DNA of 64,000 nucleotides from an uncultured Muribaculum sp. (lineage in GTDB: Bacteria > Bacteroidota > Bacteroidia > Bacteroidales > Muribaculaceae). The notes below the pieces were generated by a model that was given only the letters and a program-made list of their open reading frames with translations, was not told where the DNA came from and did no database searches. A program made the position numbers and the translations under genes. The stretch is from NCBI GenBank assembly GCA_964651105.1, contig CAZYXN010000001.1, forward strand, positions 179 to 64,178, written 5' to 3'. Below are positions 3,051 through 53,423 of this stretch, one piece after another. Position 1 is the stretch's first letter, and the number at the start of each line of letters is the position of its first letter.

Positions 3051-3058
3051 TATTTTTG
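3051..3058 (+). promoter_or_regulatory. Bacteroidetes -7 promoter element for the susC operon
   Basis: TATTTTTG fits TAnnTTTG and lies 76 nt upstream of the ATG at 3135. Confidence 0.55.
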
Positions 3059-3134: not shown

Positions 3135-6100
3135 ATGGAGAAACTTACACAATTAAAGTATCTGTTTGCTTTTGTTGCTATAACAGGGCTGGTTTTGACC
3201 AACAACTATGCATCTGCAGCACAAAGTAATATAGAAATTACCCCCCCCCGATTCTAAAAATGCTGATAATCATATAGTTATAACGGGACGTGTTGTTGAT
3301 GACAGTAATGAACCATTGATGGGTGTTACTGTGCGTCAGGGGAAAAACGGTCCTATTACAGCTACAAATATTGACGGAAAATATTCAATTACTCTGTCAA
3401 ATAAAGCTTCCCAGTCACTGACATTCACTTATGTTGGTATGAAGTCCCTGACCGAACAGATTAACGGTCGGACTAATATTAATGTAACGCTTGAATTCAA
3501 TGCGGTGGCTCTTGACGATGTTGTAGTTGTAGGCACTTACGGTACAGTGCAAAAACGTGAGGATTTAGTCGGGAGTATGTATCAGGTAAATTCTGAAGAT
3601 CTCTTAAACTTGCCTCAACAACGTATAGACGCGATGCTTGATGGTTTGATACCTGGTTTGACCGTAGGGCCTAATTCAGATTCTCCCGATAGTCCGCGTA
3701 TGCGTTATAATACCCGTATAAGGGGTGAATCATCGTTAAGCGCGTCAAACGAGCCTTTGTGGGTCATTGACGGTGTTCCTATCTACACAGGCGGTCACAC
3801 AAGTATAATACCCGGCATGAACGTGTCGGTAAGTCCGCTATCATTCTTAAATCCCGATGACATTCAATCAATGACCGTGCTGAAGGATGCCAGCACCACC
3901 GCCATATATGGCGCCGATGGCTCCAACGGTGTCATACTTGTAACTACCAAGCGTGGCCAGGAGGGTAAAGTGCAAACAAGCCTGAACCTGCAGTACGGTA
4001 TAGAAAAGATCGATAAGAGCACAAAATTCAAAGTTTTGAATGCCGCTCAATATATGGAGCTTGCTAAAGAGTCTTATCTAAACGGAGGTAATGACATGCG
4101 GTATTTTCCATATACCGATAATGATATGAATAGTTACTCTACTACCGATACTGACTGGGCTGATGTGTTCTATGATACCGGCAATACTTTTCAGGTTAAT
4201 CTGTCATTAAGAGGCGGTACTGATAAGACCAAATTCTATACATCCGGTTCATATTATGACAATACCGGTACTGTTAAGGGCAACAAGCAGCAACGTTTCA
4301 GCGTACGTACCAACAATGATTTCAAGTTCTTGAACAAATTCACGGCATCCGTAGGTTTGCAGGCTTCATATAATAATAATGACATGTTCAATCCCGGACA
4401 TGACTATTATCAGGAACTGCCTATTTTCACTCCTTATAATGCCGATGGTTCCATGCGTTTGTATAACACAATAATATTAGGCAGCAATCCTGACGGCACG
4501 CCAAAGTGGGTCACAAACCGGTATCTCAACAGTGTTGCTGAACGCGAGGAGAATATAGATAATCAAAAGGCTTGGTATCTTACCGGTAACTTCCAGCTTA
4601 GTTGGGATATCATGCAGGGATTGTCTTATACCGGCCAGTTTGGTCTCGATTACCAGTCAAGACGATCGGAGGAATATAATTCACGTGCTAACTGGACAGG
4701 TATGAGTGTGTCGGAAGGCCCTTACGGATATTCTTCGCGTCAGACATTTGAAGCTGTTAACTGGACTACCATACATCGTGTTAACTTTTTACGTACATTT
4801 AATGAAAAGCATAAAGTCGAGGCCCTCTTCGGTTTCGAGGCAGGTTCACGCGATTATACCACTGTAGGCGCTACCGGTAAAGGATTTATCAATGATAATG
4901 TTCAGGATGTCACGTATGCTAATGAACGGTTGGGTTCCAATTCAAGCAACCGTGTACGAAAGATGTCATTGATAGGACAGATCAGCTACTCATTTGACCG
5001 CCGATATTATATAATAGCCAATGGGCGACGCGACGGTAATTCCGATTTCGGTAGCGATGTGCGTTGGGCTCAATTCGGTTCAGTGGGTCTGTCTTGGAAT
5101 ATCCATAATGAAAAGTGGTATCCGTGGCAGTGGATGGATGTGTGCAAACTTTCATGCTCATATGGTGTGGACGGTAACTCCCGTCTTGGTTCACAGCAAG
5201 CGCTTGGCCTTTACTCTTATGGAAGTTCTTATTCCTATGGCGGCGAAATAGGCGGCGTGCAGTCAGGAGTGGCCAACAGCAAGTTAAGTTGGGAAACCAC
5301 ATACAAAAAAAATCTGAAGCTGCGTTTGCGTTTCCTGGAACGTTTTGAAATTGAAATGGAGTATTATCATAATCAAACCAAGAATCTTCTTACCAATCTC
5401 GATACTTCCCGCACTACGGGCGACACACGAGTATATCGTAATGTAGGTGAAATATTAAACGAGGGATATGAAGTAACGATAACTACTGATAATATTCTGC
5501 CGTCGCACAATGGCGGGTTCAGCTGGACTACTACATTCAATCTTTCACATAATCAGAACAAACTTCTGAAGCTATACAATGGTATTCAGAAAAATATGGG
5601 TACCGGTACTACTACATGGAAAGAGGGATATGACACAAGCACGTGGTTTCTCGTAAGATGGGCCGGCGTAGACCCACGTAACGGCGCTCCAATGTGGTAT
5701 GACAAGAATGGCAATATCACTCACACATTCAGTTCCGCTGACCGTGTTACCTATGGAAGTCCTTCTCCTGACTTTACAGGTGGTATGACCAATACGTTCA
5801 ATTACAAAGGATTTTCTTTGCGTGTGATGCTTAATTACACTTTTGGAGGATATGCTATGTCGTCATTCGGCAGTCGCTCCAATTATGACGGCTACAATAT
5901 AAGATCCCAGAATCAGTCGGTCAATCAGCTTGACCGTTGGCAGAAACCGGGTGATTTGGCTGTCAATCCCAAGCCTATATGGGATGTATCGACTCAATCC
6001 GGTATGAATTCAACGCGTTTCCTATATCGTAAGGATTGCATACGTCTTCACAACATCGTGTTGACATATCAGATTCCTCAGAAATTTATTCAGCGCATAG

Positions 6101-6249
6101 GAATTAAAAATGCATCTGTATCATTCATTGGCGATAATCTGTATACATGGACTCCCGATCAAAAGAGTGATAAAAATTCTTACAAAACATCTATGAGCGG
6201 TTATCCTGTCACAAGGCAGTTCTCATTTTCACTGATGACCACATTTTAA
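3135..6249 (+). CDS. susC: SusC/RagA-family TonB-dependent transporter, frameshifted at a C9 tract (true start 3135; main ORF 3316-6249)
   Basis: ATG 3135 encodes the signal peptide MEKLTQLKYLFAFVAITGLVLTNNYASA, and this frame stops at 3255-3257. The adjacent frame is open from 3241 (PPPDSKNADNHIVITGRVVDDSNEPLMGVTV). It continues through a TonB-box-like LDDVVVVG, EPLWVIDGVP, LKDASTTAIYGADGSNGVILVTTKRG and a C-terminal Phe. Confidence 0.92.
3241..3249 (+). repeat. C9 homopolymer at the susC frameshift
   Basis: ATTA-CCCCCCCCC-GATTCT; C8 or C11 would join the signal peptide to the transporter body in frame. Confidence 0.9.
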
Positions 6250-6290: not shown

Positions 6291-7697
6291 ATGAAAAAAT
6301 ATATATACATAGCATTCCTGTTGGCAGTTATGACAGGCACATATGGTTGTTCTGATTTTCTGGAGGTAATGCCGAAAGGACGAGTTACTACACCTTCATT
6401 CCTGTCGTCGCCTGAGGGTATGAAAGCGGCATTGATTGGTACATACAGTAAATTGTATGTGGTGTATGACGGCGATTTCTTGCGTTATCCCGATGTTGCC
6501 GGAAACATGCTTTCGATATTCAATGCAAATGAATCGGCCAGCATGATAAGCCAATATAACTTTACATCCAACGAAGATGAAGAACTTGGTGCTGTCGGTA
6601 AAATATGGACAGACACTTATGAGGCTATGGCTAATGCCAATAATATCATACAATATGCTCCTCAGGTCATGGCGGAATATCCGCTTCAGGCTGCTGATAT
6701 AGAACGCATAATGGGTGAGGCTTTATTTATCAGGGCTTTGTGTCATCTTGATGTGTGTCTGTGTTATGCGCAGCCTTATAATTATACCGAGGATGCAAGT
6801 CACCTTGGCGTACCGGTACTCTATAAGACTCCCGGACCTGATGATAACGAGTCACGCAAAAGTGTTTCCGAAGTCTATACACTTATATGTAATGACCTTA
6901 TCAGAGCTGAAGAACTGCTTGTTGATAAATCGCCTCGCGGACAATATTATGTTTCTCTTGATGCAGTGAGGGCCCTTCATTCTCGTGTAAGTCTTTATAT
7001 GGAAAAGTGGCAAGATGCAATCGACTATTCTGATAAGGCGCTTGCAGGCAAAACCCTTACAGGAGGAGACGATTACTACAATATGTACAGAAATCCGAAT
7101 ATAGACAGTGAAGTAATTTTCCGTTTTGACGGAACAGACAAAGGTATCAAACATCGTACATTTTATGCGGAAACAGCAGTTCCTGCCGATACGCTCATAA
7201 CTCTGTTTGATTCTCGTGACATTCGTCTTCAGGTGCTTTACGATAGGAATACGCTCTATTGCACAAAATATGAAATAGATTTGAACCGTCTCGGTCTGAA
7301 TCATGGTGACGAGCCTATAGTTGTGAGACTTTCCGAACTTTATCTCAACGCAGCCGAAGCAGCCTGTATGTTGAGTAATTATGAAGCTGCTCGAAGTTAT
7401 ATAAAGCCTATACTTGAACGTGCTGTCGATGCTGATTATGCTAACGATATTCTGACATCCACAAATGATGCTCAATTACTTGAACTTGTTAGAAAAGAAC
7501 GTGTGAAAGAATTGTGCTTCGAGGGTCATAACTTCTTTGACATCGTAAGGTGGAAAATGGATTTGGTACGTGAAAGCTCTACCACTTCAATAGTAAAACG
7601 TATCAATTATCCCAGCGACTATTTTGTGTTGCCTATATCGCGATATGAACTCAACGCTAATCTTAATATGCAACCTAATCCAACTGTAAACAAATAA
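6291..7697 (+). CDS. susD: SusD/RagB-family surface lipoprotein
   Basis: Lipobox TYGC followed by acidic SDFLE; GEALFIRALCHL, RLSELYLNAAEA and ERVKELCFEGHNFFDIVRW motifs; directly after susC. Confidence 0.93.
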   Translation: MKKYIYIAFLLAVMTGTYGCSDFLEVMPKGRVTTPSFLSSPEGMKAALIGTYSKLYVVYDGDFLRYPDVAGNMLSIFNANESASMISQYNFTSNEDEELGAVGKIWTDTYEAMANANNIIQYAPQVMAEYPLQAADIERIMGEALFIRALCHLDVCLCYAQPYNYTEDASHLGVPVLYKTPGPDDNESRKSVSEVYTLICNDLIRAEELLVDKSPRGQYYVSLDAVRALHSRVSLYMEKWQDAIDYSDKALAGKTLTGGDDYYNMYRNPNIDSEVIFRFDGTDKGIKHRTFYAETAVPADTLITLFDSRDIRLQVLYDRNTLYCTKYEIDLNRLGLNHGDEPIVVRLSELYLNAAEAACMLSNYEAARSYIKPILERAVDADYANDILTSTNDAQLLELVRKERVKELCFEGHNFFDIVRWKMDLVRESSTTSIVKRINYPSDYFVLPISRYELNANLNMQPNPTVNK

Positions 7698-7701
7698 AAT
7701 A

Positions 7702-8184
7702 ATGAAAAATAAAAAATATATTAATCATTTATTGCTGTTATCGATAATGACAGTGTGCATAGCTTTTGTTTCATGCTCGGATGATGATGAACCGTATGAC
7801 CATCCGTTCATACATATTATGGCTGATGGTGGAGCATCAAGTATTGTGGTTAATTCTGACGTTAATAACGTCAATTCCTACAATGTGTATCTCAGTTCAC
7901 GGGCCATTAACCAAAATGTTGAAGTCAACTATGAAATCATGATTGGCAACGGTCTTCAGGCCGGTCGTGACTTTGAACTTGTGACTCAGGGTAATTCGCT
8001 TACTTTTTTACCCGGTATATATGATATGCCGATAAGAATAAGGTGGAAACCTAATCCCGTTGACCCCTCTAAAAATAATACATTGACAATACGGCTCACT
8101 GGTAATAATATGGGTTTTACTCTTGGTCTTCCCGGGCCTGACGGCTTACAGCGTGAACTGGTAATAGAAAAAAAGAATCCTTAA
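7702..8184 (+). CDS. Small surface lipoprotein, probably a single beta-sandwich (DUF4843/Calx-beta-like) SusCD accessory protein
   Basis: Lipobox FVSC followed by SDDDE; beta-rich sequence; 4 nt after susD. Confidence 0.7.
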   Translation: MKNKKYINHLLLLSIMTVCIAFVSCSDDDEPYDHPFIHIMADGGASSIVVNSDVNNVNSYNVYLSSRAINQNVEVNYEIMIGNGLQAGRDFELVTQGNSLTFLPGIYDMPIRIRWKPNPVDPSKNNTLTIRLTGNNMGFTLGLPGPDGLQRELVIEKKNP

Positions 8185-8218
8185 TAGCATATATTTATAG
8201 ACTCATAAATATTAAAAA

Positions 8219-11041
8219 ATGCGTAAAAGATTATATTTCAGTATAATCGCCTTGATGGGTGTTATCGGATTACAGACCGTGGTTGCCGGAACCCCACTCA
8301 AATATGACGACAAATTAGTCACCGGAAAACTTGAAAACGGTTTGACCTACTACATTTATCCAAATGATAATCCTAAAGGTGAAGCTGTATACAGACTTTT
8401 TATAAAAGCAGGGTCAGTTTATGAAACCGAACGTCAGAAAGGTTTGGCTCATTTTTTAGAGCACATGGCTTTTAATGGCAGTAAAAATTTCCCTGCCGAC
8501 GGTATGGTAAGGTTTCTTGAAAGTAAAGGAGCGAAATTTGGAGCTGATCTTAACGCTCACACTTCATTCAACGAAACCGTATATAAATTGCAATTGCCAT
8601 CATCCGATCCTGCCATGGTCGATTCAACCATGATGATTCTTGCTGATTGGGCCGCAGGGCTATCAATCGACTCTATCGAGGTAGAAAAGGAACGCGGAGT
8701 CATAATGTCGGAATGGCTTTCTAAAAAGGATGCCAAACGCGACGGCAATAATATGCTGCTGATGGCGTTGCTCAATGATTCGCGATATTCACAGCGCATA
8801 ACCATAGGTGATACGGCAGTAATAAAAAATTGCAAACGCGATGATATAGCTGACTATTATAATAAATGGTATCATCCCTCACTCATGGCCATTGCTATTG
8901 TCGGCGATGTTGATTCCAAAGAGGTGGAACGTATCATACACAAACGTTTCAGTAATATATCAGGAGAAAAAACTCCTGACTGGAAACAATATATGATAGA
9001 CCCTTACGGGAATGACAGCGTGACAATCTTCACTGATGACCGGCTTAACAAGATTGAATTGGATATAGTGCATCTCATGCCGCTTCCTATACCTGTTGTC
9101 AATGAAGAGGATTATGAGTCATACTTGTTACGCAGTATTACCAACCGTCTTATTAAGCAAAGATTTAACGATTATTCTTTCTCTAATCCCGCTTATAAAA
9201 AAGGTTCTATAAGCCAGTCGTCTTTCCTTAATGCGACCGGTGTATTCATAGAATCGATGGAGTTGGTGCCCGGCAAGATGAAAGAAGGGCTTGAAGACTT
9301 TATATCCCATCGTAACCAGATAATGGCTTATGGCTTCACTATCAGGGAGATAGAGCGTGCCAAAAAGGAGCTTTTATCCAATATGCAACGTAGGGTAGAT
9401 GTGGGGCAATCCTCTCAGTCTATCAAAATAATGGATGAGATATATTCTGATTTTTATGTCGGCAATAAACTTGTTTCCCTGAAAGACGAGCTTGAACTTC
9501 TTAAAAAAACGTTGCCGGCCATTGATTCCATGACTATTGCGAGGTCTATTCAGGCGTTGGCTTCAGATAGACATGGCATGCGTGTACTATTGCGCGGCGG
9601 CAGTAAAGTGTATGATGAAATAAATGATGACAAGGCTCTTTTGGGACTTATATCAAGCAATTATTCCAAGGACACTCATCCGTATAGCAAAGAAATTAAT
9701 ATAGGGGGACGTATTTGTGAACTCGGAACTCCCGGCAATATCGTAAGTACAAAAGAGATTCCTGAGATTGGAGGTCTCGATATGATGCTGGATAATGGCG
9801 CCCGTGTCATATTCCGTCAATCAGATCTGGACAAGAACAAGATATCTATTACAGCACTGCGTAAAGGCGGCATGTATGCTCTCGATTCATTGGAATATTA
9901 CAGCGGTGTGTTTGCGAGGTCGGTGATTGGATTGTCAGGGGCAGGTGATATGTCACGTGACGCTCTCAATTATTATAAGGCCGGTAATTCGGCAAGCATG
10001 ATATTGCTTCCCGACAATACCCGTACCGGTATTATAGGATCGGCCTATCTTAAAGATGCTCCCATGATGTTTGATCTCATGTATGCCAAGTGGATGTATC
10101 CCCGTTTAGATATGGAGGTATTTAGTCAGACAGTGGAAAAATCCAAGGAGAGCTATCGTACAAAGCAGAAGACTCCCGGTGAAATTTTTGGAGAAGAGGT
10201 ATCCTATCTGCTTAACGGCAAAAATTATTCAAATGCCGAACTTACCGATTCCATTATAGAAAATTGTGTACGTTCCGAAGATATGATTCCTCTGCACAAG
10301 CGTTTCTTTGGTCCGGCGACAGATTATACTTTCGTCATTCTTGCCGATGCTCCTTTTGATTCAATAAAGGGATATATTACCGGCTACATTGGAGCATTGC
10401 CCAAGGGAGAAGTAAATACTAAATGGATAACCGGCCGCGAACCGATTTCTTATCGCAACAAGATTTATCACTCTCACACAGGCAATACGCCCAAAGCATC
10501 TGTCATGCTTGTATATCAACAGGATTCTTTGCTGGATAGTCAAAACATCATGGCTATCAAGTCAAAAATGCTTCAGAATGCTTTGCGTACAAAATTGCTT
10601 GGACGGCTGCGTGAAGAGATGGGAATGATATATAGCGTAGGAGTATCGTCAAGTTCGACATTATATCCCGCTCCATTGTCAAGAACCACTATCTCATTTG
10701 CATGCAAACCTGAAGATGTCGATACGCTCTTAGTCGCCACTCGCGAAGAACTAAACAATTTCTATGAGCATCCCGAGCAGTTTGAGGAAACAATACGCGA
10801 TGTGAAACTCAACCTCATCAAGGAGCACAAGCTTAATCTTCAGAAAAATGCTTTCTGGAGTTCATGGATACGAAATTCGATATTCAATGGTGAGGAAGAC
10901 TGGAACTATCTGAACAATTATGAGTCTATCGTAGAGAGTATGACAGCGACAGATATAGCCCGATTCGGCAAAGAGTTGCTTGACACTGCTTCTTATACTG
11001 AGGCTGTATTATATCCCAGTGAAGAAGTGGCGGCTAACTGA
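8219..11041 (+). CDS. M16-family (PqqL/insulinase-like) zinc metalloprotease with signal peptide
   Basis: Inverted zinc motif HFLEH, NAHTSFNETVY, EKERGVI, and second-half RLREEMGMIYSV; 940 aa; N-terminal signal peptide. Confidence 0.92.
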   Translation: MRKRLYFSIIALMGVIGLQTVVAGTPLKYDDKLVTGKLENGLTYYIYPNDNPKGEAVYRLFIKAGSVYETERQKGLAHFLEHMAFNGSKNFPADGMVRFLESKGAKFGADLNAHTSFNETVYKLQLPSSDPAMVDSTMMILADWAAGLSIDSIEVEKERGVIMSEWLSKKDAKRDGNNMLLMALLNDSRYSQRITIGDTAVIKNCKRDDIADYYNKWYHPSLMAIAIVGDVDSKEVERIIHKRFSNISGEKTPDWKQYMIDPYGNDSVTIFTDDRLNKIELDIVHLMPLPIPVVNEEDYESYLLRSITNRLIKQRFNDYSFSNPAYKKGSISQSSFLNATGVFIESMELVPGKMKEGLEDFISHRNQIMAYGFTIREIERAKKELLSNMQRRVDVGQSSQSIKIMDEIYSDFYVGNKLVSLKDELELLKKTLPAIDSMTIARSIQALASDRHGMRVLLRGGSKVYDEINDDKALLGLISSNYSKDTHPYSKEINIGGRICELGTPGNIVSTKEIPEIGGLDMMLDNGARVIFRQSDLDKNKISITALRKGGMYALDSLEYYSGVFARSVIGLSGAGDMSRDALNYYKAGNSASMILLPDNTRTGIIGSAYLKDAPMMFDLMYAKWMYPRLDMEVFSQTVEKSKESYRTKQKTPGEIFGEEVSYLLNGKNYSNAELTDSIIENCVRSEDMIPLHKRFFGPATDYTFVILADAPFDSIKGYITGYIGALPKGEVNTKWITGREPISYRNKIYHSHTGNTPKASVMLVYQQDSLLDSQNIMAIKSKMLQNALRTKLLGRLREEMGMIYSVGVSSSSTLYPAPLSRTTISFACKPEDVDTLLVATREELNNFYEHPEQFEETIRDVKLNLIKEHKLNLQKNAFWSSWIRNSIFNGEEDWNYLNNYESIVESMTATDIARFGKELLDTASYTEAVLYPSEEVAAN

Positions 11042-11105
11042 TAGACAGAAGATTGAGATTACAACAAAATTAACTTATATTTTTAACTAATTTATTTAAC
11101 AACGC

Positions 11106-12620
11106 ATGAAAAAGTTTTATTCATGGATGACCGTGGTAGCAGTCGCGCTATCATTAGGTTTTGCTTCTTGCTCTGACAGCAAGGATGAGCCGGCTCCGGA
11201 ACCGGCAGCTCCCGAATTGCTCACATTTGGTTTTACAGTGACTGATAACCCCGATGTACTTTCGGCTGACTACGTAGGAGTGATTTCTGAAATTGACAAA
11301 ACTGTCAAAATCACTATGCCGGCGTTTGCTGACAAATCATCTCTTATCGCTTATTTCACTGTAGGCGAGGAAAACAAAGTTCTTGTTAATGGAGTTACAC
11401 AACAAAGCGGCGTTACAGTCAATGATTTTAACGCTCCCGTTGACTATATTATCTCAAACTCTGACGGTTCTAAAAATGTCAAGTACACTGTCACCATCGA
11501 GAAAGCAACTAACTACGAGTGGAGTGAGGTGGCTCGTTATAACCAAATCGTTCCTCGTGGCGGCAATGCGATAATGAAAATTAATCCTGTTGACAATACC
11601 CCATATGTGGCATTTATCAATAAGACCGACAACAAGGTTATCGTGATGAAGAATGAAAACGGCACATTTAGCTATGTTGGCTCACAGGAGGGTGAAAGCG
11701 GTGTTGTTACCAGTGGACGTATGGACTTCACAATCAGCAATACAGGCACACCTTACTTTATTTATAGCGACGGTTCTATTACCGATCCGGTTAAATCGGC
11801 CGCTACTGTAATGTCGTTCAACGGCTCTTCATGGAGCAATGTTGGACAGCCCGGTATTGCCGGATTTGTGCCCAGCAAGGTTCAGATTGGCGCCATCGGT
11901 TCCCAGGTTATTGCTCCGATGATTGTCAACGTCAATAATGGCTCATTTAAGAAGAGAGAAGTATATGCCTCAATCTATTCAGGTAACTGGGCAACAAACT
12001 CTCTGACTACAGCTGGTATTAATGATGCGGGTGTAGAATGTCTTACTACGACCGATAATGCCGCTTATCTTTATACTATATCATCGACTACCAAGAAGTA
12101 TTCGGTTGCTGAATACAAGAATGGAGCATGGAGCGCTCTCAGAAGTGAATATCTGGAAGCAGGTGCGACACAAGCTCCGATTGCGATGAGTGAGGCTGCC
12201 AGCATTGTAGCAACCAATGACGGAATTGTATATCTTCTTACAGCTGACGATGCCGAAACAGGTAATGTCCAGGATATGAGATTCCGCATCCTCAAGTATA
12301 GTTCTGAAACTAAAGAATGGACACTCGTAGGTGGAACAACTATGTCTTCAATAAAAGCAGATGACTATCATATCTCTGCAAAGATTGCTGTTGCTCCTGA
12401 TGGAACTCCTTTCTTTGTCTATGCTGATTATAAGAATGATAAATTTGTCAAGGTGCAATACTTTGACAACGAAACCAAGCAATGGTCTGAACCTGTTGCT
12501 GTTTCGTCGGAAGAATCAGAAAGTGTCAATATTGGCTTCTGCGACAACGGCGAGGCTTATATTACATATGTAGGCGCTGACGACAATATTGTGTTGCTCA
12601 AGTATGCTGCCAAGAAATAA
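11106..12620 (+). CDS. Surface lipoprotein with an Ig-like stalk and a probable beta-propeller
   Basis: Lipobox FASC followed by SDSKDE; N-terminal beta-sandwich-like segment; about seven spaced aromatic motifs (YEWSEV, FSYVG, SWSNVG, NWATN, AWSAL, EWTLVG, QWSEPV) typical of propeller blades. Confidence 0.65.
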   Translation: MKKFYSWMTVVAVALSLGFASCSDSKDEPAPEPAAPELLTFGFTVTDNPDVLSADYVGVISEIDKTVKITMPAFADKSSLIAYFTVGEENKVLVNGVTQQSGVTVNDFNAPVDYIISNSDGSKNVKYTVTIEKATNYEWSEVARYNQIVPRGGNAIMKINPVDNTPYVAFINKTDNKVIVMKNENGTFSYVGSQEGESGVVTSGRMDFTISNTGTPYFIYSDGSITDPVKSAATVMSFNGSSWSNVGQPGIAGFVPSKVQIGAIGSQVIAPMIVNVNNGSFKKREVYASIYSGNWATNSLTTAGINDAGVECLTTTDNAAYLYTISSTTKKYSVAEYKNGAWSALRSEYLEAGATQAPIAMSEAASIVATNDGIVYLLTADDAETGNVQDMRFRILKYSSETKEWTLVGGTTMSSIKADDYHISAKIAVAPDGTPFFVYADYKNDKFVKVQYFDNETKQWSEPVAVSSEESESVNIGFCDNGEAYITYVGADDNIVLLKYAAKK

Positions 12621-12636
12621 AAACTGATTGATATTA

Positions 12637-12680
12637 AAGAGCGCATATGGGAATTCTTCTCACATGCGCTCTTCTTTTTA
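12637..12680 (+). terminator. Intra-operon terminator/attenuator hairpin
   Basis: AAGAGCGCAT (12637-12646) / ATGCGCTCTT (12664-12673), with further imperfect pairing inside, followed by CTTTTTA. Confidence 0.65.
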
Positions 12681-14139
12681 TTTTGTCGCTATGATTATAC
12701 CTTTATTGCTTGCCTCGGTCATAACTCTGAACGGAGCAGTACAGACCGAAAACGGTCGTGGAGTCAAGGGTATTTCCGTCTCCAATGGAGACACCATTGT
12801 AATAACCGATAAGAAAGGGCACTACTCGCTGCCGGTTATAGAGGATATGAGCGTGTTTCCGATTCTCGACGGAGGATGGAAGATGGTGTCACAATCCAAG
12901 GTCGGAAATGTCTCGTTCCCGTTTTATAGTAATGAAAATCCGTGTGGCGACAGGCTTGATTTTGTCGTTGAGCGGAAGCCGGTAGCCAAAAACTTTTCAG
13001 TTAATATAATAGGTGATGTGCAGGTGGGCGATTTGCAGGAACTTGACTATGCGGCACGCACGTTATGGCCTGAACTTATGGTTGATTCACTTGTTGGGTT
13101 CAACCTGTGGCTCGGAGATCTTGTCAATAATAATCTCACGCTATATCCACGTCTGCGGGCTATGATGGAGATGCTGCCGGCTCCATCCTGGACTATGGTA
13201 GGCAATCATGACAGGGATGTGGATTCAATACGTACACGCCAGACTATTTCGTTCGGGCGTGAATTTGGCGCTCCGACTTATGCCTTTACCGAGGGTAATG
13301 TGACATTTATTGTGCTTAACAATGTTTATGGTGACGGCGCCCGTTCATATCGCGGGCAACTTGACGATCGGCAATTGCGATTTGTGTCTAATCTTATGAA
13401 GATTCTTCCAAAGCACAGACGCATTGTAATAACCGCCCACATCCCATTGGTTCATATGTCCAATCGGGATAAACTTCTGGATATACTCCGTGGCCGTGGT
13501 GATGTGCTTGCTTTGACCGGACACATGCATGCCGTGAGTCGCAATTTCCTTTATGGTGATGATGTCACGGTTCACGAGCTGGTAGGTGGCGCTACATGCG
13601 GTTTTTGGTGGGTCGGCGAGAAAGACTGGGAGGGTATTCCATCGGCATTGATGCAATGCGGCACTCCAAAAGGTTATTTTCGTATGAATTTCACGCCTCG
13701 GGATTACGAATTTTCGTATAAAGCAACTTCTCAGGACGACACGCGTCAAGCTTCTATATGGATTGCCGGTATAGATACGATACAGTCACATATACCGGAT
13801 CTTAAAGCTTTTGAACGTGGAGAAGTGCTTGTTACTGTGTATGGAGGATGTGACAGCACGCAAGTGGTGGCTAATATAGATGGCGCTCTTGAATTGGAGG
13901 GCACTAAGGAAAAAATTATAGATCCAAATGTAGCGCGTATAAGGGAGCTTAATAGCCGAAAGATATATCCTACGCGACACAGTCGCCGTAATCCGTTCAG
14001 ACATTCGGCAAGTCCTCAGGTATGGCGGCTTAAACTTCCTGTAGAATATCTTGACGGCACTCATCGTATTGATATTGTCGCTACTGACAGGTACGGATTG
14101 CGATGTCGTTCTTCACGAGTGTTCAGTTATCCTGATTAG
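12664..14139 (+). CDS. Secreted calcineurin-like metallophosphoesterase (start 12664 or 12691)
   Basis: GDVQ, LGDLVN, GNHD, TAHIP and TGHMH metal-binding motifs; N-terminal GISVSNG..TDKKGHYSL domain; hydrophobic N-terminus. Confidence 0.88.
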   Translation: MRSSFYFVAMIIPLLLASVITLNGAVQTENGRGVKGISVSNGDTIVITDKKGHYSLPVIEDMSVFPILDGGWKMVSQSKVGNVSFPFYSNENPCGDRLDFVVERKPVAKNFSVNIIGDVQVGDLQELDYAARTLWPELMVDSLVGFNLWLGDLVNNNLTLYPRLRAMMEMLPAPSWTMVGNHDRDVDSIRTRQTISFGREFGAPTYAFTEGNVTFIVLNNVYGDGARSYRGQLDDRQLRFVSNLMKILPKHRRIVITAHIPLVHMSNRDKLLDILRGRGDVLALTGHMHAVSRNFLYGDDVTVHELVGGATCGFWWVGEKDWEGIPSALMQCGTPKGYFRMNFTPRDYEFSYKATSQDDTRQASIWIAGIDTIQSHIPDLKAFERGEVLVTVYGGCDSTQVVANIDGALELEGTKEKIIDPNVARIRELNSRKIYPTRHSRRNPFRHSASPQVWRLKLPVEYLDGTHRIDIVATDRYGLRCRSSRVFSYPD

Positions 14140-21233: not shown

Positions 21234-22421
21234 GTGTTTTCTGGTGCGGATATAATAACGGCATGGTGTTTTACCGGGATTGCTGCGATAATGGCGATTG
21301 CGGTCACGTTGTTTTATACATGCCGTATATTTAAAGTGTGCAAAACGGTGAAAAATCAGTCTTTGGCTGATTTGCCCGACACTTTTCCATCCGTATCGGT
21401 GATTGTATATAGCAATGGGGATGCGGAAAGTCTATCAGTTGTGCTGAACCAATTGAAGGCGCAGAATTACCCGTCTGATTATGAAGTCGTGGCGGTTAAC
21501 GATGGAAAAGATTATGAAAGTGAGATGCTCCTTATGTCGTTGGCATCACAATGGAAAAATCTTCGTCACACGTTTACTCCTAAAGCGATGAGAAACGTGT
21601 CGCGTAAGAAGCTTGCATTGACACTTGGAATGAAAGCGGCTCGATATGACGTAATAATCCATATAACTTCATCGACACGCATAAATTCGGCTGACTGGCT
21701 TAAGTTTATGGCAGCTCCGTTTAATGACAATAAAGTCGACATGGTTATTGGATATGCTTGTCCTGACTCAAAAGCTGACACTCAATACGGCAATAGACGG
21801 CGAGCACACGACATGCTGATAACTTCGGTTCATTATCTTGCCTCAGCGTTGACAGGACATACGTATAGAGGAGATGGCGACAATCTGGCATATCGCCGTG
21901 ACAAGTTCTTTGAAATTAAAGGATTCAGTAATTCGCTGAATCTCCATTACGGAGACGATGATATATTTGTATGTGATGTGGCGACGCCGGAAAATACAAT
22001 GGTGATGATAGCGTCAGACGCTCAGGTAATGAGTGAAAGCAATCATCCGGTAGAAGTATATAAAAATAAAAAATACCGTTATGATTATACCTCCCGATAT
22101 TGTAACTGTTCACAAAATTGGCTGTATGATACAGTGAGCCTCATGTTTTGGATATGGTTGCTTTCAACAATTGGCGGTATTATGACCGGATACTATGATT
22201 TGAAAGTTTTGATTGCATTAGGTGTTGCGGCGATGGTTTTGTGGATTCCCCAGATTGCCGCATGGCGAAGCGCGTCAAAGTTATTGTCGGCGCGTCGGTT
22301 TATGTTGAGTGTTCCCGGCGCATTGATGGCTCGTCCGTTCTATAATTTCATTTACCATTTACGTTCCCATCGTATCCATACCGCTCATTTCACTTGGCAG
22401 GCCATCGGCAACCAACAGTAA
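21234..22421 (+). CDS. Membrane-anchored GT2-family glycosyltransferase
   Basis: VSVIVY, VVAVNDG, RKKLALTLG and GDDDIF; N- and C-terminal TM segments; GTG start. Confidence 0.85.
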   Translation: MFSGADIITAWCFTGIAAIMAIAVTLFYTCRIFKVCKTVKNQSLADLPDTFPSVSVIVYSNGDAESLSVVLNQLKAQNYPSDYEVVAVNDGKDYESEMLLMSLASQWKNLRHTFTPKAMRNVSRKKLALTLGMKAARYDVIIHITSSTRINSADWLKFMAAPFNDNKVDMVIGYACPDSKADTQYGNRRRAHDMLITSVHYLASALTGHTYRGDGDNLAYRRDKFFEIKGFSNSLNLHYGDDDIFVCDVATPENTMVMIASDAQVMSESNHPVEVYKNKKYRYDYTSRYCNCSQNWLYDTVSLMFWIWLLSTIGGIMTGYYDLKVLIALGVAAMVLWIPQIAAWRSASKLLSARRFMLSVPGALMARPFYNFIYHLRSHRIHTAHFTWQAIGNQQ

Positions 22422-22476
22422 TTTGGAAAATAATAAAATTTTAGACATTACGTTAGATAATATAACACTGGATATC

Positions 22477-23640
22477 ATGAAAAAAAAAATAATGGTTGTA
22501 TTTGGAACTCGTCCTGAGGCGATTAAAATGGCTCCACTTGTTAAGGCGTTACAAAAGCAGGATGACAAATTTGAAACTGTTGTAACCGTAACTGGTCAAC
22601 ATCGTCAGATGCTTGATCAAGTGCTTGATATATTTGATATAGTTCCTGATTTTGATTTGAATATTATGCGTTCTGGTCAGGATCTTACTGATGTGAGCTG
22701 TAAGGTTCTACAAGGGATGAGGGACATATTTGTAAATAAATGTCGTCCTGACATGGTTCTTGTTCATGGTGATACATCGACATCTTCTTTTGCTGCCATA
22801 TCGGCATTCTATGCCAATATTCCCGTAGGTCATGTTGAAGCAGGTTTGCGTACTCATAATAAGTTTTCGCCTTGGCCTGAAGAAATGAATCGGCAACTCA
22901 CTGGCAGAATTGCTGATTTTCATTTTGCCCCAACACCGTTGAGCAGTCTTAATCTAATCAATGAAGGGATTGCCGAAGATATAATTTTTATAACTGGCAA
23001 CACTGTTATTGATGCTCTTCATATCGTAATTGATAGAATGGAGAATGATTCCAAACTCATGGCTGATATAGACAATGATATTAAGAGAACAGGGTATGAT
23101 GTAGAAAGATTGTCGGGAGGAAAAAAGATGGTGCTTATCACCGGACATAGAAGAGAGAATTTTGGTGAAGGATTCTTGTCGATATGCAAAGCGATAAAAG
23201 ATTTAGCAGAAAAATACAAAGATGTCGATTTCGTATATCCTATGCATCTTAATCCCAATGTTAGAATGCCGATACAAGCCGTATTCGAAGATTTTGACAA
23301 TGGGGAAAACGGAAATCTGTTTTTCATTGAACCGCTTGAATACCTCGCATTTGTCAGAATGATGTCAAAATCTTATATAGTGTTGACTGATAGTGGCGGC
23401 ATTCAAGAAGAGGCACCTGGACTCGGAAAACCGGTCGTGGTTATGCGCGACACGACCGAACGTCCTGAAGCAGTTGAAGCGGGAACTGTCAAGCTTGTCG
23501 GAACAGACTATGATAATATTATATCAACTGTTTCAGCTCTTCTTGATGATGCTGATATGTATAAATCAATGTCAAGGGCAATAAATCCTTATGGTGACGG
23601 CAAGGCTTCAGATCGAATAATCGAAATCTTATCCAAATAG
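22477..23640 (+). CDS. wecB: UDP-N-acetylglucosamine 2-epimerase (non-hydrolysing)
   Basis: VVFGTRPEAIKMAP, HGDT, GHVEAGLR, PEEMNR, HRREN, TDSGGIQEEAP, YGDGKAS; start taken at MKKK (22477). Confidence 0.96.
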   Translation: MKKKIMVVFGTRPEAIKMAPLVKALQKQDDKFETVVTVTGQHRQMLDQVLDIFDIVPDFDLNIMRSGQDLTDVSCKVLQGMRDIFVNKCRPDMVLVHGDTSTSSFAAISAFYANIPVGHVEAGLRTHNKFSPWPEEMNRQLTGRIADFHFAPTPLSSLNLINEGIAEDIIFITGNTVIDALHIVIDRMENDSKLMADIDNDIKRTGYDVERLSGGKKMVLITGHRRENFGEGFLSICKAIKDLAEKYKDVDFVYPMHLNPNVRMPIQAVFEDFDNGENGNLFFIEPLEYLAFVRMMSKSYIVLTDSGGIQEEAPGLGKPVVVMRDTTERPEAVEAGTVKLVGTDYDNIISTVSALLDDADMYKSMSRAINPYGDGKASDRIIEILSK

Positions 23641-23643
23641 CTC

Positions 23644-24633
23644 ATGTATTATTTTTATTTACCTGACGGAGTTTTAGATGTCACAGCATGCTATGTAAAT
23701 GTAATACGCAAGGCGCTTGAATATAGAGGTGAAGAAGTAAAGATTGTCAATAATTTGAAACAAATACCGAAATATTCAAAAGTGTTTACTGAATACGATA
23801 AATTTTGTATGGATGTTATGCTTTGGCGGAGAGCGAAAGTTGTGATAAACTGGTTTCAAGGCGTGACTCCGGAAGAGACTTATCTATTGCACAAGGGAAC
23901 TTGGTTAAGCAGATTTCGTTATGTGGCTCATAGATACATGGAAAAATTTGCGATAAAGAAAACTGCGTTTAAACTCTTTGTTTCAAAAGCCATGCTTCAA
24001 CATTATCAATCAATCTATAATTATAGAGGAGACGATTATTTTATAATGCCTTGTTTTAATACAATGTTAGGCGATGACGTTTTCACTGAGGAGCGTTATG
24101 CTGCTCCGAAGTTTGTGTATGCAGGGAGTATGAGTGCATGGCAATGCATTGAAGCTACTCTAAAATTGTTTAAAATGATAAAGCAATCGATACCGGCCTC
24201 AACACTTGATATTTATACTTCTGAGCGTTCTAAAGCGGACGCTTTGTGTAAAAAGCACGGTGTTGCGGCTAAGATAGACTGTGTGCCGTCGAGTGAGCTT
24301 GAAAATAGGCTCAAAAGCTATAAATATGGTTTTATTGTAAGAGATGATTCCATAATAAATAGGGTTGCTACCCCCACAAAAATGAGCAATTATATGGGTG
24401 CTGGCCTGATTCCCGTTTTTTCCAATACGATAAGTGCATATAAGGAAAATATTGCAGCAGATAATGCTTATGCAGTGTGTTTTAATGATAACGAGGAAGC
24501 AATAAAAAAAATTAGCTATATAGAACAGGCGGGTGTTGATTTAAATAAAATCGAAAAAATATATACGGATATTTTCAATCGTTATTGGAATGAGCAATAT
24601 TATATTGAACAACTATCAAGGGTTTTACCTTGA
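23644..24633 (+). CDS. Putative GT-B fold glycosyltransferase
   Basis: FVYAGSMSAWQ and VATPTKMSNYMGAGLIPV resemble the GT4-like C-terminal domain; glycan-locus context. Confidence 0.7.
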   Translation: MYYFYLPDGVLDVTACYVNVIRKALEYRGEEVKIVNNLKQIPKYSKVFTEYDKFCMDVMLWRRAKVVINWFQGVTPEETYLLHKGTWLSRFRYVAHRYMEKFAIKKTAFKLFVSKAMLQHYQSIYNYRGDDYFIMPCFNTMLGDDVFTEERYAAPKFVYAGSMSAWQCIEATLKLFKMIKQSIPASTLDIYTSERSKADALCKKHGVAAKIDCVPSSELENRLKSYKYGFIVRDDSIINRVATPTKMSNYMGAGLIPVFSNTISAYKENIAADNAYAVCFNDNEEAIKKISYIEQAGVDLNKIEKIYTDIFNRYWNEQYYIEQLSRVLP

Positions 24634-25677
24634 ATCTTGAATAATGTCAAGATGGGAAATTAGTTTATGTCCCATTGAAAAGCGGGAGAAATTGTTTAAA
24701 TATGATTTTCGTGCAGTTTCTGACAGTTTCCTCATGAAATCTTCATTTTCAAGTGTCGTTGCAATAATCTCAGCTGCTTTGACCGGTTCCTTCGGAATAT
24801 GCACGCCGTTCTCTCCATCGTTTACATACATTTCTGACAAAGTGCTCGGCGCTGTTATAATAACAGGCTTTGCCATCATCATGCTATTGAGAAGAACCGT
24901 ATCTCCCGAGCATAAATTACTCTCCTTTATTGAGATGATTGACATTGTGCAGTTTGCAATATAAGAATATGTCTCGTTCACTTTGATGTTTGACAGATGA
25001 ATTATATTGGATGGAAGTGAGGAGGTTGGATTCCATGTGTCGCTTATGATGACAAGTTTTCTTTTCTTCAGGCATTTTTGGTTCCATACTTTTACAAGAA
25101 AATCGAAGTCACGGTTGCTACGTCCAAGAGAAAGGACAAAGTCAGTAATATCACATTTAAGACCTAACCATTCATTATAGTTGTCAGGTATTCCGAATGG
25201 AGTGACTATGACGTCAGTTTTATCGGGGATTTTGAAAGTATTTTTCATTGCTTCGGCATAATTCTGACTCGGCACATGAATTTTGTTGATGTATCCGCTT
25301 CGAAGTACGTAATCAATATATTTTTTGTAGATTTTGCCAAGTAATCCTTTTTTTTCTTTGTAGGTGAAGTTGACTACGATTATACGCGGGAAAACTGATA
25401 CATGAAAGATTGCGCAATAAAATGCAAAGTTAATGGCATGGAATTGTTGCCATCCTATCAGAGTTGATATTGTTTTACGGTTTAAAAATACTGAGAAAGG
25501 AAATGAAAAATAGGAAAAATATCTCAAAAGGCGCTTTGTCAACGAACCGTGGTACAGATTACTCACTGCCGTCATTATTTCAAAATCACATCCGGATTCC
25601 TCAGCGCATGCCTCTTTGAAAGACATGATTTCATCGGCATCACAATCTGTAAGAATTATATGTTTTTTCTCAGGCAT
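24625..25677 (-). CDS. GT4-family glycosyltransferase (opposite strand)
   Basis: VLSLGRSNRDF, SGDTVLLNSMMMAKPVI and YVNDGENG motifs. Confidence 0.8.
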   Translation of the reverse strand: MPEKKHIILTDCDADEIMSFKEACAEESGCDFEIMTAVSNLYHGSLTKRLLRYFSYFSFPFSVFLNRKTISTLIGWQQFHAINFAFYCAIFHVSVFPRIIVVNFTYKEKKGLLGKIYKKYIDYVLRSGYINKIHVPSQNYAEAMKNTFKIPDKTDVIVTPFGIPDNYNEWLGLKCDITDFVLSLGRSNRDFDFLVKVWNQKCLKKRKLVIISDTWNPTSSLPSNIIHLSNIKVNETYSYIANCTMSIISIKESNLCSGDTVLLNSMMMAKPVIITAPSTLSEMYVNDGENGVHIPKEPVKAAEIIATTLENEDFMRKLSETARKSYLNNFSRFSMGHKLISHLDIIQDSR

Positions 25678-30002: not shown

Positions 30003-30820
30003 TGATTTCGGCAGAACGACAATTAGAATTAAGAAATCAGTTTAATCCTGATGGCTCGGATGTACGTAAAGTGCAGTTGAGATTGCTTGATATGCTCTTA
30101 TATATTGATTCTGTTTGTCGGGATAATGATATTGATTATTGGCTTAGTTCCGGAACACTGATTGGGGCCGTACGTCATGGCGGATTCATTCCTTGGGATG
30201 ATGATGTGGATGTTGAGATGATGCCTGACGGGTTGAAAAAATTTATTAAAGCTGTTGAGAAAGATAGTTCCGGTAAATATGCCATTCATAATCATGCTAA
30301 CGATTCCAATTATCTTTTTGCGTTTACTAAACTTAGAGATTTGAAATCGTATATATGTGAGGATGAAGTCGTTCCACAGAAATTGCGTTATGAAGGTTGC
30401 TCGATAGATATTTTCACAATGGTGCCGAGCAATTCGCGCAGGATTCATGTATTGGCGCGCAAATGTATAGGTAAAGAGATGACGTTATGGCGTGCGATTT
30501 CCCGCAGGCCGCAATGGCAGCAGTCTATGTCAAAGATGCTTATGGATTTTCCTGTTAGGAAAATTATATTGCCTTTACTTACTGCGCTCTCTCGTCCGTT
30601 TGCCGGCAGTCAGCTCCGTCACACGCTCTCGGCTCCTTTCCATGCTCCTCGTAAAATGGAAGAAATATTTCCTCTCGGGAAAATGACATTTGAAGGGCAT
30701 GAATTTCCGATTCCGGGAAATTATGATGCATATTTGCGTCGCATATATGGTGATTACACACAGATCCCGCCGCTTGATAAAATACATGTTCATGCCAAAA
30801 AGATAGAAATCTATGAGTAG
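30002..30820 (+). CDS. licD: LicD-family phosphotransferase
   Basis: WLSSGTLIGAVRHGGFIPWDDDVD, IDIF and YLRRIYGDY motifs. Confidence 0.92.
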   Translation: MISAERQLELRNQFNPDGSDVRKVQLRLLDMLLYIDSVCRDNDIDYWLSSGTLIGAVRHGGFIPWDDDVDVEMMPDGLKKFIKAVEKDSSGKYAIHNHANDSNYLFAFTKLRDLKSYICEDEVVPQKLRYEGCSIDIFTMVPSNSRRIHVLARKCIGKEMTLWRAISRRPQWQQSMSKMLMDFPVRKIILPLLTALSRPFAGSQLRHTLSAPFHAPRKMEEIFPLGKMTFEGHEFPIPGNYDAYLRRIYGDYTQIPPLDKIHVHAKKIEIYE

Positions 30821-32237
30821 CATAAAAAAAAATTTTCTTTATAGCTGCTTTTTGACAACGGCCAACTATGTTTTTCCGCTTATAACTTTTCCTTATGTGT
30901 CGAGAGTTTTAGGCGCGACAAATTTTGGGCTATGTAATTTTATAGATGGAATAATCGATTATTTTGTCCTTTTCTCAATGATGGGAATTGGATTATTTGG
31001 AATAAGGGAAGTTGCGTCGAACAAGACTTCTGAAAAAATAAGCAATACTTTTTTTAACCTTCTTATTCTTACTTTTATAAGCACTGCTATTGCTTTTGGA
31101 ATATTGGTTTTCGCGATAATTTTTGTTCCGGAGCTGAATGCTAACAAAGAATTGATGATTATCGGTGGATGCAAACTTTTTTTTAATTTTTTACTTGTTG
31201 AATGGTTTTATAAAGGGATAGAGGATTTTAAATATATTACGATAAGGTCCATAATCGTTAGAAGTCTTTATGTCGCGGCTGTATTTATATTTGTAAAATC
31301 CTCATCTGACTATGTGATATATTATTTTTTAATAGTGTCAATGATTGTGGTTAATGCAATTATTAATATTGTGCATATTAGAAAATATGTTAGTTTGTCA
31401 GGTATAAAAATATGTTTGAGAAAGTATGTAAAACCATTTATAACGCTTGGGGTTTACCTTATATTGACATCTATGTATACGACATTTAATGTTGCGTATC
31501 TTGGTTTTGTCGGAGGAGATACTCAGGTTGGGTATTATACGACTGCAACCAAACTCTATAATGTCCTTTTGGCGGTTTATGCTGCGTTTACAGGCGTAAT
31601 GATGCCTCGGATGAGTGCATTAATCACTGAAGGAAAAATGACAGAATTCCAATCGAAAATTAAAAAGAGCATGGAGTTTTTGTTTTCGGTTTCGATTCCT
31701 TTAATAATATATGTAATTATGCAAGCTTCTCAGGTTGTATTGCTTGTTGCGGGAAAAGGATATGAAGGAGCTGTATTGCCAATGCAGATTGTTATGCCAT
31801 TGATTTTAATAATCGGATATGAACAGATTCTCGTTGTGCAAATGTTGATGCCGCTTAAATCAGATCGGATTATTTTAATAAATTCAGTTATCGGGGCATT
31901 TTTAGGCCTCACTTTAAATATATTGCTTGTTCCTGTTTTTCGTAGTGTTGGTTCTTCAATGGTATGGGTTGTATGTGAGGTTCTAATATTAATTTTATCT
32001 CAACATGCAGTTACAAAAGTTGCAGGATTTAAATTTCCATTTAAGTTGTTATTTAAAAATATAATTTGTTTTGTACCTTTGCCGATATTGATTATTGTAT
32101 CCAATATCATATTTGATAATTATATTATCCAATTATTAGTTAGTGGGGTTGTAATGATTGCCTACACAATAGTAATACATTCTTTATTTTTTAGAGATGG
32201 TGTATGTTATAAGTTTGTAAATAGTAAAATAAGATGA
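30813..32237 (+). CDS. wzx: Wzx-type polysaccharide flippase
   Basis: Many TM segments; PLITFPYVSRVLG, GIREVA, GYYTTATK and VMMPRMS. Confidence 0.92.
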   Translation: MSSIKKNFLYSCFLTTANYVFPLITFPYVSRVLGATNFGLCNFIDGIIDYFVLFSMMGIGLFGIREVASNKTSEKISNTFFNLLILTFISTAIAFGILVFAIIFVPELNANKELMIIGGCKLFFNFLLVEWFYKGIEDFKYITIRSIIVRSLYVAAVFIFVKSSSDYVIYYFLIVSMIVVNAIINIVHIRKYVSLSGIKICLRKYVKPFITLGVYLILTSMYTTFNVAYLGFVGGDTQVGYYTTATKLYNVLLAVYAAFTGVMMPRMSALITEGKMTEFQSKIKKSMEFLFSVSIPLIIYVIMQASQVVLLVAGKGYEGAVLPMQIVMPLILIIGYEQILVVQMLMPLKSDRIILINSVIGAFLGLTLNILLVPVFRSVGSSMVWVVCEVLILILSQHAVTKVAGFKFPFKLLFKNIICFVPLPILIIVSNIIFDNYIIQLLVSGVVMIAYTIVIHSLFFRDGVCYKFVNSKIR

Positions 32238-52638: not shown

Positions 52639-53165
52639 AGCATCCTGGAGAACATATGCCAAAGCGCGATGCCTGTGCTGACCGAAACGTTGAGTGAATG
52701 TTTTGTGCCGTATTGTGGTATTTCGAGACATATATCGGCTGCGTCAACTACCTCTTGTGCAACGCCGTTGACTTCATGTCCGGCAACAATCGCATATTTT
52801 TTCCCCGGCTCCGGAATGAACTTCTCGAGAGACACGCTGTCGGCCACCTGTTCAAGGACGCAGATTGTGTAGCCGTCATCCTTTAAAGCCTTTAATGCGT
52901 CGAGGGTGTTGTCGAAGTGATGCCAGTCGACAGAGTCTTCTGCTCCAAGCGCTGTTTTATGGATTTCAGGCGACGGCGGAGTGCCGGTAACTCCGCACAA
53001 CATCACTTTTTCTACTGCGAAAGCGTCGCAGGTGCGTAATATTGCGCCCACATTGCTGAGGCTTCTTACATTGTCCAATACTGCGGCAAGAGGGAGTTTA
53101 GGCGCCTTCTTGAACTCCTCGGCGCTCATGCGGTGCAAATCCCAGATAGTTTTCTTTTTGTTCAT
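52635..53165 (-). CDS. SpoU/TrmH-family RNA methyltransferase
   Basis: LDNVRSLSNVGAILRTCDAF, GHEVNGV, IPQYGTKHSLNVSVS. Confidence 0.93.
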   Translation of the reverse strand: MNKKKTIWDLHRMSAEEFKKAPKLPLAAVLDNVRSLSNVGAILRTCDAFAVEKVMLCGVTGTPPSPEIHKTALGAEDSVDWHHFDNTLDALKALKDDGYTICVLEQVADSVSLEKFIPEPGKKYAIVAGHEVNGVAQEVVDAADICLEIPQYGTKHSLNVSVSTGIALWHMFSRML

Positions 53166-53169
53166 TTTG

Positions 53170-53177
53170 CAAATTTA
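53170..53177 (-). promoter_or_regulatory. -7 element 4 nt before the SpoU start codon
   Basis: Minus strand reads TAAATTTG-CAAA-ATG. Confidence 0.6.
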
Positions 53178-53336: not shown

Positions 53337-53346
53337 GGGGGGGGGG
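53337..53346. repeat. G10 homopolymer upstream of the TBDT operon promoter
   Basis: AAAAC-GGGGGGGGGG-TAGC, ending 26 nt before the -7 element. Confidence 0.9.
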
Positions 53347-53372
53347 TAGCATAGATTCTTGTATTATATTTC

Positions 53373-53380
53373 TACATTTG
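53373..53380 (+). promoter_or_regulatory. -7 promoter element of the TBDT/DUF4876 operon
   Basis: TACATTTG, 43 nt upstream of ATG 53424. Confidence 0.65.
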
Positions 53381-53423
53381 CAAAATAAACACAATATAAT
53401 TATCACATATTTTTATTATCACC

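Follow-up and report, generated by a model that had tools for sequence, protein, structure and literature searches.

Is a susC gene whose signal peptide and transporter body lie in different reading frames a broken gene, a misread one or one that has been switched off? The question is raised by a 64,000-nucleotide (nt) stretch of DNA from an uncultured Muribaculum sp. of the Muribaculaceae (GenBank GCA_964651105.1, contig CAZYXN010000001.1, positions 179 to 64,178), which we call the window. Within it, nine consecutive cytosines (C9) interrupt the 5' coding region of a gene for a SusC-family, TonB-dependent outer-membrane transporter. The original prediction held that this tract is a simple-sequence repeat (SSR) that turns a SusCD system ON and OFF. 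Comparison with orthologous loci supports it: tract lengths differ among orthologues, the reading frame is broken at the tract and nowhere else, and the bodies of the OFF genes are intact. On this comparative evidence, the susC tract is probably a hypermutable SSR contingency locus, that is, an ON/OFF switch driven by slipped-strand mispairing.

A cytosine tract separates the signal peptide from the transporter body

We re-read the tract and the frames around it in the window, which has a G+C content of 41.7% (Table 1). The frame that opens at ATG 3135 reads MEKLTQLKYLFAFVAITGLVLTNNYASAAQSNIEITPPRF and ends at the premature TAA a short way past the tract. Its N-terminal signal peptide was assigned by eye, and the N-terminal architecture of the full-length orthologues P0001, P0006 and P0007 matches that of the window SusC. 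The frame that holds the transporter body lies at +1 relative to ATG 3135. It is closed by a TAG at 3232-3234, opens three codons 5' of the C tract and then runs without interruption to the stop at 6249, reading KLPPPDSKNADNHIVITGRVVDD; between the VVD motif and that stop lie 985 open codons. The third frame meets a stop at about 3276.

Gain or loss of single cytosines at this site toggles the gene between full-length and truncated products. One cytosine fewer (C8) or two more (C11) gives a continuous SusC, which for C8 is 1037 amino acids (aa) long, whereas translation ends after 40 aa with C9 and at about 3276 with C10. The first start codons available in the body frame, a TTG and an ATG just past the tract, would cost the protein not only its signal peptide but also the first 15 positions of the CarbopepD_reg domain. 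Gene callers chose equivalent internal starts in out-of-frame orthologues (P0003, 977 aa; P0009, 971 aa; P0011, 959 aa). All of this agrees with what had been claimed for the locus: that a C9 run placed after the signal peptide puts susC out of frame, that the signal-peptide frame stops at 3255-3257, that the body is open in the next frame from the cytosines onward, that C8 or C11 would restore a full-length protein, and that a start at 3316 or 3319 would yield a SusC without a signal peptide.

Judged by its family matches, the body belongs to a genuine SusC/RagA transporter with an adjoining SusD partner. It scores 678.7 bits against TIGR04056 (cut-off 368.25) and 61.8 against the SusC signature TIGR04057 (cut-off 46.2), and it contains the Pfam domains Plug and CarbopepD_reg_2. 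Its nearest solved structure is PDB 8aa4_A, described as 'SusC homolog' (E = 4e-102). Upstream of the gene, the TTTTG core of a -7-like box is conserved across eight aligned orthologous upstream regions, and we infer that this box is a putative promoter element of the susC operon.

Table 1. Coordinates of the features of the susC locus and of the second receptor locus in the window
Feature	Position	Strand	Remarks
Putative Bacteroidetes-type -7 promoter box of the susC operon, TAttTTTG (consensus TAnnTTTG)	3051-3058	+	Read from sequence
SusC start codon and Sec-type signal peptide (MEKLTQLKYLFAFVAITGLVLTNNYASA, ASA-A cleavage-like site)	3135-3218	+	Translation; by-eye call
SusC/RagA-family TonB-dependent transporter body (CarbopepD_reg, Plug, barrel), intact to stop	3235-6249	+	+1 frame relative to ATG 3135
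C9 homopolymeric tract	3241-3249	+	Codes for Pro-Pro(-Pro) linker between signal peptide and CarbopepD_reg; C9 OFF, C8/C11 ON, C10 OFF (third frame)
Premature TAA that ends the frame from ATG 3135 when the tract is C9; 40-aa product	3255-3257	+	
First TTG/ATG in the body frame	3316-3321	+	TTG 3316 / ATG 3319; product without signal peptide
SusD-family lipoprotein, SusC partner	6291-7697	+	Pfam SusD_RagB, SusD-like_3
160-aa protein	7702-8184	+	No family match
M16 (insulinase-type) peptidase	8219-11041	+	
504-aa protein	11106-12620	+	No family match
Metallophosphoesterase	12628-14139	+	
G10 tract	53337-53346	+	78-87 nt 5' of the TonB-dependent receptor ATG, 26 nt 5' of a TAcaTTTG box (53373-53380)
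TonB-dependent receptor, the only other one in the window	53424-56276	+	Pfam
DUF4876 lipoprotein	56290-57546	+	Pfam
DUF6850 protein	57559-59211	+	Pfam

The tract is not a chance run

The second longest run of cytosines in the 64 kb is of six, so that the tract is a simple-sequence repeat inside an open reading frame (ORF) and unusually long for the window. Counted on both strands, 9-mer runs of G or C match three times, and none of 100 dinucleotide-preserving shuffles reached that number. Codon usage is no explanation either: CCC makes up 14% of the proline codons in the window genes, and CCC-CCC is used in none of the 12 other Pro-Pro dicodons. Because three matches are observed against 0.17 expected and CCC is a rare proline codon, the C tract is not a chance run.

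The position of such runs is also specific. Within the window, only the two genes for TonB-dependent receptors have a G/C tract at their 5' end. Across 214 kb of Muribaculaceae loci, G/C runs of at least 7 nt all fall at the susC tract site with three exceptions, namely the G10 tract of the window, one C7, and a G8 found at the edge of a contig, 5' of a SusC paralogue. The other Bacteroidota loci with susC homologues (132 loci, 1.07 Mb) hold only two runs of at least 8 nt, neither of them at a 5' end. The protein itself does not appear to call for the repeat. Close orthologues carry TYPL, LSPN or LTPS at the Pro-Pro site, and in more distant homologues from Prevotella the linker is missing altogether; judging from these homologues, the Pro-Pro motif is dispensable to SusC.

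Tract length and reading frame vary among orthologues

To compare alleles, we scanned GTDB species representatives with patterns taken from the gene body, which makes the search blind to the state of the tract. The scan returned seven loci with 83-87% aa identity, to which the window adds an eighth (Table 2); the relatives, which assign the window to Muribaculaceae, come mostly from mouse-gut and other gut metagenomes. Five of the eight have pure tracts (one ON, four OFF) and three have interrupted tracts, all of them ON. The remaining alleles in Table 2 were fetched by way of called proteins. The original prediction had proposed such a comparison and would have yielded if orthologues had no C run at this position. 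In other Muribaculaceae, C7, C8, C9 or C10 stands at the same site, both in and out of frame.

Table 2. Tract and predicted state of susC in the window and in orthologous loci
Locus	Tract	State
Window	C9	OFF
L002	C8	ON
L004	C9	OFF
L005	C8	OFF (C9 would be ON)
L006	C9	OFF
L001	Interrupted, CCCCTCCCC	ON
L003	Interrupted, CCTCCTCCC	ON
L007	Interrupted, CCCCTCTC	ON
L081 (91% aa identity to window)	TC8, total length as in window	OFF
L082	C7	OFF
L083	C10	OFF
L084, L086, L087, L088, L090	C8	ON
L085, L089	Interrupted, CCCCCCTC	ON
L091	C8	ON

Pure tracts span C7 to C10, and their distinct alleles comprise seven out of frame and four in frame. Interrupted tracts are in frame in every case, as is that of one close orthologue from a scan of metagenome contigs (L093). 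Where an allele is out of frame, the break lies exactly at the tract and nowhere else. Because 984-986 codons stay open after the tract in all seven OFF alleles, these do not appear to be decayed pseudogenes.

Length also differs between close strains in which the gene is intact and both ON and OFF states occur. The window's nearest relative (about 97% nt identity; four gut metagenomes of one study, depths 4-30) has C8 and is ON, and upstream of the tract it differs from the window by synonymous changes only. Two same-species pairs, L004 (C9) with L082 (C7) and L006 (C9) with L084 (C8), are 97.3% and 97.1% identical, respectively, and neither shows a gap in 1200 nt of downstream coding sequence. 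Departures of both -1 and +1 from the ON length are thus on record, including within one species, where C7 and C9 lie around C8. The loci L084 and L085 are 99.8% identical, and a synonymous C-to-T change breaks the run in L085.

Some alleles are natural 'locked-ON' versions of the gene. L085 (1611-1618) and L089 (1292-1299) encode the same protein as L084 (1611-1618) from DNA that is 99.6-99.8% identical, with CCCCCCTC in place of C8. Another of the interrupted loci, L003 (JAMPGZ010000029.1), is a Muribaculaceae-type susC locus with 83% aa identity and the same operon start, found in a metagenome-assembled genome labeled 'Lachnospiraceae bacterium'; this contig is probably mis-binned. In a search for same-strain contigs by exact protein, the window's SusD had no recorded match, and the 160-aa protein encoded after susD matched one contig, which stops short of the susC start.

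Slipped-strand switching and its alternatives

Breaks confined to the tract, errors of -1 and +1, interrupted tracts that are in frame and OFF genes without decay together form the comparative signature of a contingency locus. At such a locus, slipped-strand mispairing during replication would add or drop a cytosine, a change that would be heritable and in principle reversible. C8 (or C11) would join the signal peptide to the transporter body and so turn the gene ON. With C9 or C10, translation would end 2 to 9 codons past the tract, exported SusC would not be made and the gene would be OFF; the window would carry an OFF allele. The tract lies in what appears to be a tolerant Pro-Pro linker between the signal-peptidase site and CarbopepD_reg, and because this linker seems dispensable, in-frame changes of 3 nt would be tolerated, merely gaining or losing a proline. 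Within a population, switching would be frequent and reversible, and OFF cells would lack the transporter and possibly, through polarity, have less SusD. The benefit might be escape from an agent that targets or depends on SusC, such as a phage, an antibody or a toxin, or from the cost of expression; the suggestion of the original prediction that the purpose is evasion of phages at a receptor or of immunity is speculative.

Several points weigh against this interpretation. All tract lengths come from assembled contigs, among them those of four gut-metagenome runs (none of RNA), so that heterogeneity within a population and reversibility are inferred from differences between assemblies. The ON/OFF proportions are no population estimate, since some of the alleles were fetched through their called proteins. 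C8 is identical in four metagenome samples of the related strain and in five samples of another species, the latter a set picked via an identical full-length protein. Because the same C8 occurs in all samples of these two species, switching at C8 may be slow. Bacteroidales have mismatch repair, which lowers slippage rates relative to those of Campylobacter or Helicobacter. Finally, the C9 read in the window might itself be an error of the consensus.

If it were, the true tract would be C8 (or C11), the gene would be intact and the frameshift would be an artefact of sequencing or assembly. Homopolymer length is the commonest consensus error in long-read assemblies, and the C8 of the nearest relative is in keeping with such an error. 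However, each of the window's nine A/T homopolymers of 8-10 nt falls within an unbroken ORF, the coding density reaches 96% and none of the other genes is split, and out-of-frame C7, C8, C9 and C10 tracts occur at the same site in independent short-read assemblies of four other species. We regard an artefact as unlikely, and the conclusion drawn for the locus from its orthologues would stand even were the window's C9 wrong. A control for homopolymer noise in the related-strain contigs X1-X3, over 22.3-32.8 kb of the window, covered only a T8 at 25348, which showed no indel in three runs; the strain is about 92% identical or absent there.

Plain pseudogenization would mean that the gene is being lost and that the tract is the chance site of its lesion, with neither reversibility nor an adaptive role. 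It draws on the fact that 7 of the 11 distinct pure-tract alleles are out of frame. Yet the OFF alleles keep their roughly 985 codons without a second lesion and the genes downstream are intact. Moreover, OFF alleles occur in four species, and each of these has either ON relatives that are about 97% identical or the same tract one step away; one species has both C7 and C9 around C8; and the pure C tract is maintained although CCC is rare. Simple gene loss is accordingly very improbable in our estimation.

Programmed or leaky recoding (reviewed in PMC5009743) would allow C9 to give full-length SusC all the same, through a +1 shift of tRNA-Pro on CCC-C or through slippage of RNA polymerase, and the frame would then set the level of the protein and not its presence or absence. 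The shift needed in the window is exactly +1, and in frame 0 the tract is followed by a CGA codon with a stop close behind. Such +1 shifts are classically associated with CCC-C, and RNA polymerase tends to slip on long homopolymers. But across the orthologues we did not find a conserved out-of-frame relation in a slippery context: they are in frame or depart by -1 or +1 from the ON length, the codons that follow vary (CGA, CAA, CAT), and the interrupted tracts of three species are in frame, whereas programmed sites normally hold one fixed frame relation. Recoding as the regular mode of expression is highly doubtful on these grounds; it may make the OFF state leaky.

An invertible-promoter or invertase switch for susC was rejected, since the locus has no suitable inverted repeats or recombinase: between 2700 and 3500, the only inverted repeats are the hairpin after leuS and weak AT-rich pairs of 12-14 nt, and no recombinase gene lies near susC, whose neighbors are leuS, susD and genes for the peptidase and the phosphoesterase.

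A variable G tract precedes the other TonB-dependent receptor gene

Slipped-strand switching of susC can also be considered in light of the sole other G/C run of at least 7 nt in the window, a G10 tract upstream of the second TonB-dependent receptor gene (Table 1). In three samples of one related strain, contigs carry G10, G11 and G12 at this site (depths 25-30), and all three share 30 single-base differences from the window within 401 nt. A fourth sample's contig starts at 53348, just past the G tract. Receptor orthologues with 98%, 72% and 64% aa identity have upstream runs of G9, G9 and G8, in flanks that are not alignable, and in the species at 64% the run is G8 in seven of seven contigs. 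Because a hypermutable G tract precedes the second receptor gene, its length variation makes the slippage reading of the susC C tract more credible. The spread from G10 to G12 is also the one indirect sign in these data that such tracts may switch often and reversibly within a clone.

In Neisseria, fetA is controlled by a promoter homopolymer switch, a poly-C tract between the promoter elements. The G10 tract is like it in being non-coding, in lying upstream of a TonB-dependent receptor gene and in varying in length between samples. Unlike the fetA tract, it lies upstream of a putative -7 box (by 26 nt, and further in orthologues) and not clearly between core promoter elements.

The G10 intergenic region has other features. 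It is bracketed by a 22-nt inverted repeat (53156-53177 and 53373-53394; 86% complementary, 195 nt apart), both arms of which contain the palindrome TTTGCAAA and TAnnTTTG-like boxes that face two divergent genes. The repeat could simply be two promoters or could represent an invertible-promoter-like architecture; in the X1-X3 contigs the region is oriented as in the window. A contig with a 77%-identical SusC relative of 1002 aa (L092) opens at positions 1-8 with GGGGGGGGTAG, roughly 220 nt before the gene begins, and this start resembles the G10-TAG motif of the window (53337-53349). A length-heterogeneous tract would be expected to break the assembly at such a G run. In the DUF4876 gene (L156-L162; 420 versus 407 aa), what looked like a second variable start proved to be a difference in gene calling on identical DNA.

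Relation to known phase-variable systems

The closest parallels to the susC tract are the TonB-dependent hemoglobin receptors HmbR and HpuAB of Neisseria meningitidis, which are switched by poly-G tracts within their ORFs (PMC3786947). As in susC, the ORF of a TonB-dependent transporter contains a G/C homopolymer in its 5' part, one base shifts the gene between ON and OFF, and isolates of one species differ in tract length and show both states. Unlike the neisserial receptors, susC belongs to another phylum and subfamily, in which a SusC/RagA transporter with a CarbopepD_reg N-terminal domain is paired with SusD, and its host is a non-pathogenic gut commensal. Rates and phenotype have been measured in Neisseria, whereas the susC switch is proposed here from sequence; its tracts are short (7-10). 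Homopolymer phase variation is also described in Campylobacter, Helicobacter, Bordetella and Mycobacterium (PMC1891110, PMC2831843, PMC10334774). With these systems susC shares premature stops in both wrong frames, a tract length that is polymorphic among strains, and the placement of a G/C run of at least 8 nt close to the 5' end of a gene for a surface protein.

Phase variation of SusC/SusD in Bacteroides fragilis and B. thetaiotaomicron is driven by invertases or shufflons (bioRxiv 10.1101/2025.06.24.661302; PMC13064476), as it is in Nakayama-Imaohji 2009 to the extent that PMC11868660 cites that work. The papers found agree in this with the original prediction, which had noted that surface variation in Bacteroidales is described mostly as invertase-driven. 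DNA inversions and shufflons are the only routes by which SusC/SusD phase variation is known in gut Bacteroidales. In Bacteroides, the inversions often exchange or disconnect the N-terminal signal peptide and CarbopepD_reg region of susC. In the window, the same gene family is affected at the same point, the break falling between signal peptide and CarbopepD_reg, and a heterogeneous surface is the presumed outcome in both. The means differ, in that here a mononucleotide repeat would shift the frame. In the literature searched, of which coverage was incomplete, we found neither homopolymer-based nor slipped-strand switching described for SusC-like genes or in Bacteroidales, nor any phase variation in Muribaculaceae. 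The proposed switch is of a known type, of which that literature holds no earlier description in SusC-like genes or in this clade.

Together, the two tracts suggest that mononucleotide-repeat slippage switches outer-membrane transporters in a dominant family of the mouse gut, with a bearing on phage receptor availability, immunoglobulin A targeting, nutrient niche and strain-level heterogeneity. There is also a practical consequence. Because genes with such tracts enter annotations as pseudogenes or as proteins truncated at the N-terminus (P0003, P0009, P0011) and their state varies between samples, gene-content and pseudogene calls from metagenomes are unreliable unless tract length is taken into account.

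As a tentative extension, which we consider plausible without favoring it, Muribaculaceae may possess a multi-locus 'phasome', in which G/C homopolymers within or upstream of genes for TonB-dependent and SusC-like transporters generate combinatorial states of surface and nutrient uptake by slipped-strand mispairing. If so, a strategy tied mostly to pathogens so far would operate in non-pathogenic gut commensals, replacing or adding to the invertases of Bacteroidaceae. Whether multi-locus, repeat-driven phase variation is truly restricted to pathogens has been questioned in a review (PMC11868660).

Gene neighborhood of susC and other features of the window

The remainder of the locus was predicted to be intact, and the genes after susC are indeed unbroken from susD through those for the 160-aa protein, the M16 peptidase and the 504-aa protein to the metallophosphoesterase gene. 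Orthologous loci keep susD downstream of susC, followed by a gene for a 160- or 161-aa protein and the M16 peptidase gene. The genes that follow SusCD (7702-14139) do not make up a typical glycoside-hydrolase polysaccharide utilization locus, which suggests that the substrate of this SusCD pair may be peptidic or phosphorylated instead of a glycan.

Upstream of susC and directly after leuS, positions 2888-2927 form a perfect hairpin (17 bp, 6-nt loop). Transcription of leuS probably terminates here, in which case susC would have a promoter of its own.

Elsewhere, the window contains a strain-variable region, at 22416-24652 and at about 30800-32800. In the related strain of X1-X3, 2235 nt of the stretch 22416-24652 are swapped for 969 other letters, and coverage is lost past about 30.8 kb; between the variable stretches identity is about 92%, as against about 97% at susC.

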